DNA of 64,000 nt. Origin: Escherichia coli (GTDB taxonomy: Bacteria > Pseudomonadota > Gammaproteobacteria > Enterobacterales > Enterobacteriaceae). The stretch lies in the NCBI RefSeq assembly GCF_001677475.2, contig NZ_CP015229.1; one strand, 5' to 3'. The translations under genes were made by a program, and so were the position numbers. Shown one piece after another: positions 44,817 to 48,952 of the stretch. The first letter of the stretch is position 1, and every line of letters starts with the position of its first letter. The notes under the pieces were generated by a model. It ran no database searches, was not told where the DNA came from, and worked only from the letters and a program-made list of their open reading frames with translations.

Positions 44817-44894
44817 TCTATAGCTGGTAAGATAATTACGTACTGCAAATATTCATTTTATTAATATTTAAACTTAATTTATATGGAATAATAT

Positions 44895-45296
44895 ATGACA
44901 TGGAATCCGTTGGCGCTGGCGACGGCGCTGCAAACTGTACCTGAGCAAAATATTGATGTAACAAATGGCGAGAACGCATTAATTATTAAAATGAATGATT
45001 ATGGCGATTTGCAAATCAATATTCTATTTACTTCCCGCCAAATGATTATCGAAACCTTTATTTGTCCGGTAAGTAGTATCAGCAATCCAGATGAATTTAA
45101 TACCTTCTTATTAAGAAATCAGAAGATGATGCCGTTGTCATCGGTAGGGATCTCCAGCGTGCAACATGAAGAGTATTACATTGTTTTCGGTGCGTTATCG
45201 CTTAAATCTTCTCTTGAAGATATCCTGCTTGAGATAACCTCGCTGGTAGATAACGCATTGGATCTGGCTGAAATTACAGAAGAATATTCACACTAA
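44895..45296 (+). CDS. yjfI: Uncharacterised protein YjfI (DUF2170)
   Basis: 133-aa acidic ORF; AT-rich upstream region. Confidence 0.85.
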   Translation: MTWNPLALATALQTVPEQNIDVTNGENALIIKMNDYGDLQINILFTSRQMIIETFICPVSSISNPDEFNTFLLRNQKMMPLSSVGISSVQHEEYYIVFGALSLKSSLEDILLEITSLVDNALDLAEITEEYSH

Positions 45297-45314
45297 TTAC
45301 AAGGACAGGTATTT

Positions 45315-46013
45315 ATGGGAATTTTAAAAAGTTTATTTACGCTGGGGAAATCGTTTATATCTCAGGCGGAAGAATCCATTGAAGAAACCCAGGGCGTGCG
45401 CATGCTGGAACAGCATATTCGTGACGCTAAAGCTGAACTCGATAAAGCCGGAAAATCTCGCGTTGATCTGCTGGCGCGGGTGAAATTAAGTCACGATAAG
45501 CTGAAAGATTTACGTGAGCGCAAAGCCAGTCTGGAAGCCCGTGCGCTGGAAGCGTTAAGCAAGAACGTTAATCCGTCTTTGATTAACGAAGTTGCTGAAG
45601 AAATCGCGCGCCTTGAGAATCTCATTACCGCTGAAGAGCAAGTGTTGTCGAATCTGGAAGTCTCTCGTGATGGCGTGGAAAAAGCAGTTACAGCGACAGC
45701 GCAGCGTATCGCTCAGTTTGAGCAGCAAATGGAAGTCGTTAAAGCTACTGAAGCCATGCAGCGTGCACAACAGGCTGTAACGACCTCTACCGTTGGCGCA
45801 TCTTCCAGCGTTTCGACAGCGGCAGAATCCTTAAAACGCCTGCAAACGCGTCAGGCCGAACGTCAGGCTCGCCTGGATGCTGCCGCACAGTTGGAAAAAG
45901 TCGCAGACGGTCGCGATCTTGATGAAAAGCTGGCGGAAGCCGGAATTGGCGGTAGCAATAAAAGTAGCGCCCAGGATGTATTAGCAAGACTGCAACGCCA
46001 ACAGGGCGAGTAA
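45315..46013 (+). CDS. yjfJ: PspA/IM30-family protein YjfJ
   Basis: 232-aa ORF, charged helical sequence with PspA-like N-terminus MGILKSLFTLGKSFISQAEESIE. Confidence 0.85.
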   Translation: MGILKSLFTLGKSFISQAEESIEETQGVRMLEQHIRDAKAELDKAGKSRVDLLARVKLSHDKLKDLRERKASLEARALEALSKNVNPSLINEVAEEIARLENLITAEEQVLSNLEVSRDGVEKAVTATAQRIAQFEQQMEVVKATEAMQRAQQAVTTSTVGASSSVSTAAESLKRLQTRQAERQARLDAAAQLEKVADGRDLDEKLAEAGIGGSNKSSAQDVLARLQRQQGE

Positions 46014-46062
46014 TTTTTTGCCAGCCTCGCTAAAAGGCTGGCAACTATTTTAAGGATAAAAT

Positions 46063-46722
46063 ATGTCTGGTTTTTTCCAGCGTCTGTTTGGCAAGGATAA
46101 TAAGCCTGCTATCGCTCGCGGTCCGCTGGGACTTCATCTCAATAGTGGCTTTACGCTCGACACGTTAGCGTTTCGTTTGCTGGAAGATGAATTGCTGATT
46201 GCGCTGCCGGGTGAGGAATTTACGGTAGCCGCTGTTAGCCGCATCGATCTGGGCGGCGGTAGCCAGATTTTCCGCTACTACACTTCGGGCGATGAATTTC
46301 TGCAAATCAATACCACCGGCGGCGAAGATATTGATGACATTGATGATATCAAGCTCTTTGTCTATGAAGAGAGCTACGGTATCAGTAAAGAGAGTCACTG
46401 GCGCGAGGCGATCAACGCCAAAGCGATGGGGGCAATGACCTTAAACTGGCAGGAAAAACGCTGGCAGCGATTTTTTAACAGCGAAGAACCAGGAAATATC
46501 GAACCTATCTACATGCTGGAAAAAGTAGAAAATCAAAACCATGCCAAATGGGAGGTCCATAATTTTACCATGGGCTACCAACGGCAAGTAACCGAAGATA
46601 CTTACGAATATTTGCTGCTAAATGGTGAGGAATCTTTTAACGATCTCGGCGAGCCAGAGTGGTTATTTTCGCGCGCGTTGGGTGTCGATATCCCGCTGAC
46701 ATCACTTCATATTATTGGTTAA
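46063..46722 (+). CDS. yjfK: Uncharacterised protein YjfK (DUF2491)
   Basis: 219-aa soluble ORF. Confidence 0.85.
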   Translation: MSGFFQRLFGKDNKPAIARGPLGLHLNSGFTLDTLAFRLLEDELLIALPGEEFTVAAVSRIDLGGGSQIFRYYTSGDEFLQINTTGGEDIDDIDDIKLFVYEESYGISKESHWREAINAKAMGAMTLNWQEKRWQRFFNSEEPGNIEPIYMLEKVENQNHAKWEVHNFTMGYQRQVTEDTYEYLLLNGEESFNDLGEPEWLFSRALGVDIPLTSLHIIG

Positions 46723-46739
46723 TTACAAGGACGTTTACA

Positions 46740-47138
46740 ATGCATATACTGGATTCACTTCTTGCCTTTAGTGCCTATTTTTTTATTGGCGTGGCTATGG
46801 TGATTATTTTTCTGTTTATCTATTCTAAAATTACACCGCACAACGAATGGCAGTTAATCAAAAACAATAATACCGCGGCGTCACTGGCGTTCAGCGGTAC
46901 ATTGTTGGGTTACGTGATCCCCTTATCCAGTGCGGCAATCAATGCGGTGAGTATTCCAGACTATTTCGCCTGGGGCGGGATCGCACTGGTGATTCAGTTA
47001 CTCGTTTTTGCTGGCGTCAGACTTTATATGCCCGCATTAAGCGAAAAAATTATTAATCACAATACCGCAGCAGGAATGTTTATGGGAACCGCCGCACTGG
47101 CTGGCGGTATTTTTAACGCAGCTTGTATGACATGGTAA
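46740..47138 (+). CDS. yjfL: Inner membrane protein YjfL (DUF350)
   Basis: ORF 46659..47138; start trimmed to MHILDSLLAFSAYFFIGV after aagga RBS (132 aa, about 4 TM). Confidence 0.85.
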   Translation: MHILDSLLAFSAYFFIGVAMVIIFLFIYSKITPHNEWQLIKNNNTAASLAFSGTLLGYVIPLSSAAINAVSIPDYFAWGGIALVIQLLVFAGVRLYMPALSEKIINHNTAAGMFMGTAALAGGIFNAACMTW

Positions 47139-47147
47139 TGGACGATC

Positions 47148-47786
47148 ATGGCCAGAAAACGCAAATCAAGAAATAACAGTAAAATTGGTCACGGAGCGAT
47201 CAGTCGCATTGGAAGACCGCATAATCCTTTTGAGCCGCGCCGCAATCGCTACGCACAAAAATACTTAACGTTGGTGCTAATGGGCGGTGCCGCTTTTTTA
47301 ATAGTCAAAGGATGGAGTGAAAGTAGCGATGTCGATAACGACGGCGACGGAACGTTTTACTCGACAGTGCAGGATTGTATTGATGACGGTAATAATGCAG
47401 ACATTTGTGCGCGTGGCTGGAACAATGCCAAAGCGGCATTTTATGCCGATGTTCCGAAGAATATGACTCAGCAGAATTGTCAGTCTAAGTATGAAAATTG
47501 TTACTACGACAACGTTGAACAGAGTTGGATCCCGGTTGTTTCTGGATTTTTGTTAAGCCGGGTTATTCGTAAAGATCGCGATGAGCAGTTTGTTTATAAC
47601 AGCGGCGGTTCCTCTTTTGCTTCGCGCCCCGTCTGGCGCAACACTTCCGGTGATTACTCCTGGCGCTCCGGTTCTGGCAAAAAAGAGTCCTATTCTTCGG
47701 GCGGCTTTACCACCAAAAAAGCGTCAACCGTTTCTCGCGGCGGCTATGGTCGTTCTTCCAGCGCCCGTGGGCATTGGGGAGGCTAA
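47148..47786 (+). CDS. yjfM: Uncharacterised protein YjfM (DUF1190)
   Basis: 212-aa ORF: basic N-terminus, one hydrophobic segment, Cys-containing middle, G/S/R-rich C-terminal tail. Confidence 0.85.
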   Translation: MARKRKSRNNSKIGHGAISRIGRPHNPFEPRRNRYAQKYLTLVLMGGAAFLIVKGWSESSDVDNDGDGTFYSTVQDCIDDGNNADICARGWNNAKAAFYADVPKNMTQQNCQSKYENCYYDNVEQSWIPVVSGFLLSRVIRKDRDEQFVYNSGGSSFASRPVWRNTSGDYSWRSGSGKKESYSSGGFTTKKASTVSRGGYGRSSSARGHWGG

Positions 47787-47788
47787 TC

Positions 47789-48952
47789 ATGCTGAGACAC
47801 AACGTTCCTGTACGGCGGGATCTGGACCAGATCGCCGCTGACAACGGTTTCGACTTTCATATCATCGACAATGAAATCTATTGGGATGAGAGTCGGGCTT
47901 ACCGCTTTACCCTGCGCCAGATTGAAGAGCAGATCGAAAAACCGACTGCGGAACTGCATCAGATGTGCCTTGAGGTGGTAGATCGCTCGGTTAAAGACGA
48001 AGAGATCCTGACGCAACTGGCGATCCCTCCGTTGTACTGGGATGTGATCGCCGAAAGCTGGCGCGCACGCGATCCTTCGCTGTATGGCCGGATGGATTTT
48101 GCCTGGTGTGGCAATGCGCCGGTGAAGCTGCTGGAGTACAACGCCGATACGCCAACCTCGTTGTATGAATCGGCTTATTTCCAGTGGCTGTGGCTGGAAG
48201 ATGCCCGGCGCAGCGGCATTATTCCGCGTGATGCCGATCAGTACAATGCCATTCAGGAACGCCTGATTTCGCGCTTTAGTGAGCTTTACAGTCGGGACCC
48301 GTTTTATTTTTGCTGCTGTCAGGACACCGATGAAGACAGGAGTACCGTGCTGTACTTGCAGGACTGCGCCCAGCAGGCTGGGCAGGAGTCGCGGTTTATC
48401 TACATTGAAGATCTCGGTTTGGGCGTCGGCGGTGTGCTGACCGATCTTGATGATAATGTCATCCAGCGTGCATTTAAGCTGTATCCGCTGGAGTGGATGA
48501 TGCGTGACGATAACGGTCCGCTGCTGCGCAAGCGCCGCGAGCAATGGGTGGAGCCGTTATGGAAAAGTATCTTGAGCAACAAAGGGTTAATGCCGCTGCT
48601 TTGGCGCTTCTTTCCTGGTCATCCTAACCTTCTTGCATCCTGGTTTGAGGGCGAAAAACCGCAGATTGCCGCTGGCGAAAGCTATGTGCGTAAACCGATC
48701 TACTCACGCGAAGGCGGAAACGTCACCATTTTCGACGGTCAGAATAACGTCGTTGACCACGCTGATGGTGATTACGCCGATGAACCGATGATCTACCAGG
48801 CGTTTCAACCTCTGCCGCGATTTGGCGATAGCTACACACTCATCGGTAGTTGGATTGTCGATGATGAAGCGTGCGGAATGGGGATCCGTGAAGATAACAC
48901 GCTGATCACCAAAGACACCTCACGTTTCGTTCCGCATTACATTGCTGGATAA
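47789..48952 (+). CDS. yjfC: Glutathionylspermidine synthetase-like ATP-grasp ligase YjfC
   Basis: ORF 47774..48952; start trimmed to MLRHNVPVRRDLDQIAADNGF (387 aa); start sits 2 nt after yjfM stop. Confidence 0.85.
   Translation: MLRHNVPVRRDLDQIAADNGFDFHIIDNEIYWDESRAYRFTLRQIEEQIEKPTAELHQMCLEVVDRSVKDEEILTQLAIPPLYWDVIAESWRARDPSLYGRMDFAWCGNAPVKLLEYNADTPTSLYESAYFQWLWLEDARRSGIIPRDADQYNAIQERLISRFSELYSRDPFYFCCCQDTDEDRSTVLYLQDCAQQAGQESRFIYIEDLGLGVGGVLTDLDDNVIQRAFKLYPLEWMMRDDNGPLLRKRREQWVEPLWKSILSNKGLMPLLWRFFPGHPNLLASWFEGEKPQIAAGESYVRKPIYSREGGNVTIFDGQNNVVDHADGDYADEPMIYQAFQPLPRFGDSYTLIGSWIVDDEACGMGIREDNTLITKDTSRFVPHYIAG

Follow-up and report, generated by a model that had tools for sequence, protein, structure and literature searches.

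Glutathionylspermidine synthetase (GspS) forms an amide between spermidine and the C-terminal glycine of glutathione, with an acyl-phosphate as intermediate. The Escherichia coli relatives YjfC and YgiC lack glutathionylspermidine (GSP) synthetase activity (Sui 2012, as cited in the accessible text of PMC11762307 and PMC12506659) and ligate spermidine to peptides in vitro, with a physiological substrate that is described as unknown (Pederick 2023, as cited in the accessible text of PMC11762307). The accessible text of Ravi et al. (2024, mSystems, PMC11237479) describes an operon class in which a CesT/Tir–PspA pair is combined with a GSP-synthetase-like ATP-grasp enzyme, a DUF350 protein with four transmembrane segments, a DUF1190 lipoprotein, a DUF2491 protein and a K+ channel. 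This class was proposed there to link polyamines (their monitoring) to PspA-based membrane dynamics. The accessible description is centred on PspA and presents the DUF1190 protein as a metal-chelating lipoprotein; neither a terminal Gly-Gly nor an enzyme–substrate pair is mentioned in it. The present analysis concerns the yjfI-yjfJ-yjfK-yjfL-yjfM-yjfC cluster in a 64,000-nucleotide stretch of E. coli DNA (NCBI RefSeq assembly GCF_001677475.2, contig NZ_CP015229.1), the whole of which is referred to below as the window. The cluster contains the same families in the same order as the class of Ravi et al. but without the K+ channel gene.

As an operon class, the cluster has been described before, its genes are annotated in practically all E. 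coli genomes, and one of its enzymes is characterised biochemically and structurally. It does not represent a novel type of system. A preliminary note made from the letters of the window without database searches (the sequence-only reading) had called the combination unusual and had regarded all six products as lacking an established biochemical function. The first statement is superseded by the operon class described above, and the second by the solved structures of YjfC and YgiC (PDB 7UK6–7UKA), by their reported peptide–spermidine ligation and by the structure of BacA, a homologue of YjfI (8Q8O). New in the present comparison are the DUF1190–ligase pair as the core of the system, a protein-level conservation of a C-terminal Gly-Gly that is common to ygiBC and jumbo phages, and an apparent loss of the K+ channel gene in most E. 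coli. We propose that YjfC polyaminates the C-terminal glycine of YjfM within a two-module cluster, a reading to which a probability of about 35% is assigned. The two genes concerned and their junction are located as follows.

47148–47786, + strand: yjfM, encoding a DUF1190 protein (PF06693)
47775–47788, + strand: yjfM–yjfC junction, TGG GGA GGC TAA TC, in which the W-G-G codons double as the GGAGG ribosome-binding site of yjfC
47789–48952, + strand: yjfC, encoding an ATP-grasp acid-amine ligase of the glutathionylspermidine-synthetase family (7UK6/7UK7), with its ATG inside the open reading frame that begins at 47774

The pairing of the two genes was assessed in loci obtained with an alignment of seven diverse ligases, which was used to scan a single genome from each species. 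The best 80 of at least 588 relatives were retained, and six families were labelled in these loci by jackhmmer. A DUF1190 gene is present in 79 of the 80 loci. In 74 of 78 cases it is the gene immediately upstream of the ligase gene, in the same orientation; the median spacing is 6 nt, and 60 of these 74 pairs are separated by 15 nt or less. The loci fall into those with DUF1190 and ligase only (36), those with DUF350, DUF1190 and ligase (13), those with all six families (26) and partial sets or a lone ligase (5). The presence of DUF1190 in 79 of 80 ligase loci, 49 of which lack PspA, indicates that the invariant core is DUF1190 plus ligase and not PspA, around which the cluster had been thought to be built. 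The pairing is also observed from the DUF1190 side. Seven diverse DUF1190 representatives are all followed directly by a gene, which encodes a GSP_synth protein in six; in the seventh (L005), the downstream gene ends at the contig edge and is unannotated. A separate homologue search with YjfC yielded close relatives only among its top 120 matches and did not reach distant operon variants. The sole locus of the 80 with no nearby DUF1190 gene is that of Photobacterium pectinilyticum (L046:8956–10164), whose ligase may be an additional paralogue with a DUF1190 partner encoded at another site.

The pair extends to phages. A YjfC-like ligase is encoded in 140 phage records, from phages of Acinetobacter (57), Aeromonas (42) and Pseudomonas (14) as well as several jumbo phages, and PHROGs contains families for DUF1190, the ligase and DUF350. 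In jumbo phages, a DUF1190-like lipoprotein gene is located directly upstream of the ligase gene (phiRSL1 ORF051-gsp and Phosso gp533-gp532). The upstream DUF1190-like protein ends in GG in Ralstonia phage phiRSL1 (L090:2095–3622), in Sinorhizobium phage Phosso (L091:1910–3670) and in a 170-kb phage-like metagenome contig (L006:8001–9802). Three records filed as plasmids (L001, NZ_MG591698.1; NZ_OL790696.1 and NZ_CP134663.1, the last two in PLSDB) carry chromosomal core genes (cpdA, nudF, tolC, ygiBC) or are 4.8–4.9 Mb long, and are probably mislabelled chromosomes or chromosomal fragments.

YjfM matches PF06693 (DUF1190) with an E-value of 8e-18 and consists of a basic N-terminal anchor, an acidic four-Cys domain, a short hydrophobic motif, a basic Gly/Ser/Arg tail and a W-G-G end. 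It carries the motifs of the DUF1190 family, namely four invariant Cys residues, W-x-P-x-x-x-G-[FY], S-R-G-G-F/Y-G and the terminal G-G; the conserved alignment columns are C77, C87, C111, C118, P129, G133, R197, G199, G201 and G211. When YjfM was searched against 1.84 billion representative proteins, 131 matches were obtained, including 104 of at least 150 residues, which are representatives at 50% identity. These 104 proteins end in GG in 82 cases and in GS in 14, and the recognisable exceptions to the GG end (P0001, P0008 and P0020) are frameshift products. The end is GG in 75 of the 79 genomic copies and GS in the other four, compared with an expectation of 2.6% for a GG end from tail composition. 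Extended tails end in a re-created GG, and no C-terminal domain fusion was found among the DUF1190 proteins compared. Moreover, the residues of the end motif vary with the neighbouring ligase: R-S-[MLVFY]-G-G is observed beside YgiC-type ligases (35 of 36), and W-G-G or F-G-G beside YjfC-type ligases (39 of 43).

The terminal Gly-Gly could also be read as a nucleotide-level by-product, the Shine–Dalgarno sequence of the coupled ligase gene, given that the GGAGG of the W-G-G codons sits 7 nt before the yjfC ATG in the window and that the median spacing in the family is similarly short. Codon use points the other way: all four Gly codons occur at both positions, and GGAGG is found in only 16 of the 79 genomic copies. 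The GG end is also kept in ten of ten loci in which the ligase gene is not directly downstream but 87–522 nt away, elsewhere in the operon or divergent. The mixed Gly codons, the rarity of GGAGG and the retention of GG without a directly adjoining ligase gene indicate that the constraint acts on the protein and not on the nucleotides. The Shine–Dalgarno explanation was rejected on these grounds and retains almost no credibility.

Databases contain many frameshifted YjfM products and 548–601-residue YjfM–YjfC 'fusions' (P0001, P0008, P0020 and P0132–P0136), and such frameshifts and fusions would destroy the free Gly-Gly end. In P0136, which has 130 member sequences, a +1 shift occurs right after the residues TTKK; the corresponding features of the window are 47581–47841 (+ strand, alternative frame) and a poly-A run near 47700. 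These products may be homopolymer sequencing errors or real pseudogenes.

YjfC matches PDB 7UK6/7UK7 ('acid-amine ligase YjfC') with an E-value of 1e-273, the YgiC structure 7UK8 with 2e-129, the PHROG 'glutathionylspermidine synthase' with 5e-117, and GspS and trypanothione synthetase (TryS) with 1e-32 to 1e-37 (TryS 1e-37; GspS 3e-32). YjfC and YgiC share 51% identity, and the score of YjfC against the NCBIfam GspSA equivalog is 163 bits at a cut-off of 882. The chemistry of GspS on the glycine of glutathione and the peptide–spermidine ligation by YjfC make the DUF1190 tail, in the simplest reading, the natural carboxylate substrate. No statement of YjfM or YgiB as a Gly-Gly substrate was found in the searchable literature, which did not extend to Pederick 2023, Sui 2012 and Iyer 2009.

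In the proposed mechanism, the cluster would be the E. coli version, without the K+ channel, of a conserved two-module proteobacterial membrane system. The first module, the universal core, would consist of YjfM and YjfC encoded right after it, usually preceded by YjfL (DUF350). YjfC would turn the free carboxylate of the YjfM C-terminal glycine into an acyl-phosphate and would then amidate the activated glycine with spermidine or another polyamine, which would leave YjfM with a flexible, strongly basic tail that is capped by a polyamine at the inner membrane. The second module, an add-on, would be formed by YjfI (CesT-like), YjfJ (PspA/ESCRT-III-like), YjfK (DUF2491) and, ancestrally, the K+ channel, and would serve membrane protection or remodelling with YjfI as a chaperone or negative regulator of YjfJ. 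Three elements of this scheme are inferred, namely the identity of YjfM as the substrate, the access to its tail from the cytoplasm and the cooperation of the two modules. More speculatively, the capped tail might act, in the seven-gene ancestral form, on the co-encoded K+ channel or on the PspA-coated membrane.

Several observations weigh against this proposal. The DUF1190–ligase pair occurs without PspA, DUF350 or DUF2491 in 36 of the 80 loci, so that the two modules are tied together by genomic context only, and the loci sampled are mostly gammaproteobacterial. A lipobox Cys is present in 88 of 97 aligned DUF1190 representatives and in 75 of the 79 genomic copies. This conservation indicates that the bulk of the DUF1190 protein is exported, while the ligase, which has no signal peptide and needs ATP, is cytoplasmic. 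The candidate membrane-crossing segment contains only about 13–16 hydrophobic residues, and a crude Hessa-type sum gives +10 for this mid-segment versus +6 for signal peptides, real signal peptides being positive too. With so short and poorly scoring a segment, a cytoplasmic YjfM tail is unproven. Finally, in a tethered-peptide test with AlphaFold2 (YjfC, 30 Gly and the cognate 20-residue tail; 24 paired rows), the ligase was predicted with confidence, but the linker and tail had predicted local distance difference test values of 25–33 and the tail was not docked.

The charge distribution of the family agrees with an outside/inside placement, provided that the membrane is spanned by the invariant W-x-P-x-x-x-G-[FY] segment: the N-domain has a net charge of −6.3 (negative in 96 of 97 proteins), and the tail has a net charge of +7.3 (positive in 95 of 97). 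In YjfM of the window, the lipobox Cys is replaced by Trp (residue 56, 47313–47315; IVKGW), so that YjfM of this lineage would be unlipidated and held by an uncleaved signal-anchor. The same Trp allele is found in another E. coli (L009), and LKGC is found in L089 and other enterobacteria.

The lipobox, the poor transmembrane quality of the YjfM mid-segment and the undocked tail are accommodated more easily if YjfC is a polyamine-conjugate synthetase that acts on a small soluble peptide or metabolite. In that case YjfM, exported as a lipoprotein, would sense, bind or use the product or would control the enzyme from across the membrane via YjfL. Its Gly-Gly would be kept for a different purpose, for example recognition by a periplasmic protease or by a binding partner. 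The activity on peptides reported in vitro, for which a physiological substrate is unknown in the accessible sources, suits this explanation. So do related operons with AdoMet decarboxylase, polyamine oxidase and spermidine-synthase-like genes, which point to small-molecule polyamine metabolism (accessible text of PMC11237479). A small substrate does not account for the switch of the end motif with ligase subtype, for the specificity of GspS-family enzymes for a C-terminal glycine carboxylate or for the fact that the two genes persist as a unit, in phages and in ygiBC, with no metabolic genes beside them. Nor does it account for the near-invariant free -G-G end, restored where tails are extended, for which no other reason is known. 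A small-substrate role for YjfC is regarded as only slightly less probable than polyamination of the YjfM tail.

Polyamination by YjfC and YgiC would predict a spermidine adduct at the C-terminal Gly-Gly of both YjfM and YgiB. Tentatively, the proposal can be extended to all DUF1190 proteins (YjfM, YgiB and the phage homologues), which might be polyaminated at the C-terminal glycine by the adjacent ligase in an unrecognised bacterial and phage modification, C-terminal protein spermidinylation. If true, this would be a new protein modification, the equivalent of glutathionylspermidine at the scale of a protein and, among prokaryotes, the counterpart of the recently discovered spermidine conjugates of SUMO/ubiquitin-GG. 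It would give ygiBC a role in the tolC operon, explain the gene pair in jumbo phages and tie polyamines to PspA-type membrane protection. If the adduct is absent, the locus would be an ordinary, poorly expressed cluster of unknown function.

The remaining features of the cluster precede yjfM and include the genes of the putative second module.

44784–44813, + strand: intrinsic terminator of rlmB, the upstream limit of the cluster (13-bp stem and T8 run; folding free energy (dG) −16.4 kcal/mol, z −4.25)
44814–44894, + strand: yjfI leader/promoter region (81 nt, 80% A+T)
44895–45296, + strand: yjfI, encoding an acidic DUF2170 protein, a CesT/Tir-like chaperone or regulator by homology to 8Q8O
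45315–46013, + strand: yjfJ, encoding a protein of the PspA/IM30 (bacterial ESCRT-III) family (PF04012)
46014–46062, + strand: 49-nt yjfJ–yjfK spacer that stands in for the K+ channel gene, with a hairpin at 46018–46044 (a possible partial terminator)
46063–46722, + strand: yjfK, encoding DUF2491, a cytoplasmic all-beta protein of orphan fold (PF10679)
46740–47138, + strand: yjfL, encoding a small multi-pass membrane protein of the DUF350 family (PF03994), with its ATG inside the open reading frame that begins at 46659

The chromosomal gene order is rnr, rlmB, yjfIJKLMC and aidB. A 4.3-kb query spanning the cluster matched 5425 of 5426 complete E. coli genomes with identity up to 98.7%, and RefSeq names the genes yjfI, yjfJ, yjfK, yjfL, yjfM and yjfC on the matched genomes. 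The observations of the sequence-only reading are confirmed, whereas its interpretation is partly supported. Its six co-directional genes lie where it placed them, all on the + strand with gaps of exactly 18, 49, 17, 9 and 2 nt from yjfI to yjfC, its strong terminator after rlmB was recovered, and all six of its domain assignments are borne out by profile or PDB matches. The promoter-like region that it saw before yjfI is indeed AT-rich, but the leader contains no match to the sigma-70 consensus at 9 or more of 12 positions. No sigma-54 −24/−12 spacing was noticed when the leader was read by eye, with no pattern search run, and an Rfam scan of 44500–49200 gave no match. In heat-evolved strains, yjfIJKL is strongly activated by loss of a single nucleotide 80 bp before yjfI (Rychel et al. 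2025). In some E. coli (e.g. MS 69-1, L092:460–918), IS200C is inserted between the rlmB terminator and yjfI (approximately 44815–44890 in the window), within the presumed yjfI promoter region.

All six families are found together in Gammaproteobacteria, in Alphaproteobacteria and in one metagenome-assembled genome of Desulfurivibrionaceae. The gene order is rearranged in several of these loci, as in Novispirillum (I-J-C-K-L-M), Vibrio ruber (C-I-J-..-K-L-M) and Pseudovibrio (divergent MLK/C). The joint presence of six families despite rearranged orders speaks for a functional connection, not for mere inheritance of neighbouring positions, and upholds the earlier suggestion of one functional unit.

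The further claim of a single operon fared less well. The hairpin at 46018–46044 in the yjfJ–yjfK gap resembles a terminator (10-bp stem, weak T-run, dG −17.1, z −3.3), and the only reported expression module (iModulon) holds only yjfIJKL, with yjfM and yjfC unmentioned (Rychel et al. 2025). The hairpin may attenuate transcription past yjfJ, which would fit the 'yjfIJ operon' of some authors (accessible text of PMC10948618), although all four genes of yjfIJKL rise together in the heat-evolved strains. These data, together with the 49 loci of the MC-only and LMC-only types and the second E. coli copy of the pair as ygiBC, would be explained if yjfIJ, yjfK(L) and yjf(L)MC were independent, separately transcribed neighbours and not one system. 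Such independence is unlikely in view of the co-location of the six families in 26 of the 80 loci from several proteobacterial classes and the maintenance of the set in rearranged orders. The remaining gaps of 2–18 nt in the window are also too small for promoters, and co-transcription of all six genes is plausible.

The yjfJ–yjfK gap provides additional evidence on this point. In most complete loci, a gene of approximately 350 codons is located between the PspA and DUF2491 genes, and its product is a K+ channel of the Ion_trans_2 + Castor_Poll_mid type. A 356-residue version is kept between yjfJ and yjfK in 19 of the 5426 complete E. coli genomes (e.g. L089:4500–5570 and L009:3070–4140), where it overlaps yjfJ (TAATG) and yjfK (ATGA). 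These overlaps indicate contiguous transcription and translation in the channel-bearing strains and count against separate units. The window and most E. coli have the 49-nt hairpin spacer in place of this gene. As judged from sequence comparison, the channel is the ancestral state, as in other Gammaproteobacteria, and the gene was lost in most E. coli.

Two other hairpins were considered. One in the 3′ end of yjfL (47088–47108) was rejected as no better than shuffled sequence (z −0.8). The interval between the yjfC stop and the aidB start contains a strong hairpin without a T-run (48987–49018; dG −23.7 and z −3.4 for the surrounding 71 nt, 48950–49020), which may have a role in aidB regulation or in stabilisation of the 3′ end of the yjf transcript.

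The four upstream products are assigned to families as follows. YjfI (isoelectric point 4.1) resembles PDB 8Q8O ('DUF2170 family protein', BacA) over residues 3–128 with an E-value of 5.6e-17 and matches the NCBIfam BacA model with 6.7e-27, under the model cut-off. The CesT-like nature of the 8Q8O fold is taken from the accessible text of PMC10948618 and PMC11237479. YjfJ matches PF04012 (PspA_IM30) with an E-value of 5.9e-58 over model positions 1–220 of 220, which secures the link to the Psp family suspected earlier and drawn in the accessible text of PMC11237479. Residues 2–19 of YjfJ are amphipathic (hydrophobic moment 0.45 versus 0.20 in shuffles; 1.25% of shuffles reach 0.45), as a property of the sequence only. 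YjfJ has no PDB sequence match at an E-value of 0.01 or less, and its structure in the literature is a homology model only. YjfK matches PF10679 (DUF2491) with an E-value of 2e-70, and YjfL matches PF03994 (DUF350) with 1.4e-33. The DUF350 gene lies directly upstream of DUF1190 in 43 of the 80 loci. In 41 of these 43, the extreme C-terminus of DUF350 is a conserved [ST]-[YW]; YjfL of the window ends in MTW (47136–47138). An assignment of YjfK to the triphosphate tunnel metalloenzymes (CYTH/TTM) was rejected, as the eight-stranded tunnel fold with an ExExK motif was not found. None of the PADLOC anti-phage defence models gave a family match to the cluster, the sole similarity being that of the YjfJ coiled coil to JetC (E-value 5e-4).

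A different role for these proteins was given by Rychel et al. (2025), in which YjfJ, YjfK and YjfL add pores or channels, with YjfK as a primitive outer-membrane beta-barrel porin, YjfL as an inner-membrane channel and YjfI as a periplasmic lipoprotein, for envelope stiffening or export of misfolded proteins at high temperature. The strong up-regulation of yjfIJKL in heat-evolved strains, the 1.2-fold higher growth at 42 °C upon overexpression and the beta-rich, barrel-like structural model of YjfK are in keeping with this role. However, the YjfK and YjfI sequences contain no signal peptide, YjfI is homologous to the soluble CesT-like BacA (8Q8O), and the authors of the pore model themselves failed to place YjfK in a membrane. 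The pore model is accordingly considered highly improbable.

The cluster can be compared with five known systems. The bac operon of Pseudomonas aeruginosa (bacABCDEF) is also a six-gene operon headed by a DUF2170–PspA pair (BacA/PA3732 and BacB/PA3731), but differs in its proposed sigma-54 promoter and in its phenotypes in biofilm and rhamnolipid. According to the accessible text of PMC10948618, BacA negatively controls the bac operon, a BacA–BacB interaction is cited as unpublished work, and no spermidine-synthase homologue is present in or around bac. The classical Psp system (pspF/pspABCDE and pspG) shares with the yjf cluster a PspA/IM30 effector with an amphipathic N-terminus and a link to stress (heat for yjf). 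No genes for PspF, PspB or PspC are present in the yjf cluster, and the partner of YjfJ is CesT-like.

The core module resembles the tolC-ygiB-ygiC locus, which contains a paralogous DUF1190–ligase pair. YgiB has the four-Cys domain, the hydrophobic motif, the RGGFG motif and the -GG end, and its gene is located 5 nt from ygiC. This pair has no PspA, DUF2170, DUF2491 or DUF350 partner and ends in R-S-M-G-G instead of W-G-G; ygiBC, unlike yjf, is Cpx-regulated and co-transcribed with tolC. GspSA and trypanothione synthetase belong to the same ATP-grasp family as YjfC. YjfC differs from GspSA in lacking the amidase (CHAP) domain and GSP synthetase activity, and its proposed acceptor is a protein tail rather than glutathione.

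ATP-dependent activation of a protein C-terminal carboxylate, as proposed for YjfC and YjfM, has counterparts in RimK-S6, tubulin tyrosine ligase (TTL), Pup-PafA and ubiquitin/SUMO. RimK (S6) and TTL are ATP-grasp enzymes, and ubiquitin and SUMO end in -GG. The -GG end of SUMO can be conjugated to spermidine (PMC12270671). DUF1190 differs from these tags in not being a beta-grasp protein, no E1/E2 or PafA-type enzyme is present, and the amine would be a polyamine and not a lysine or amino acid. For the proposed RimK/TTL-like system, the ligase and its candidate substrate protein are genetically paired (79 of 80 loci), and the candidate substrate has a conserved free C-terminus (GG in 75 of 79 copies).

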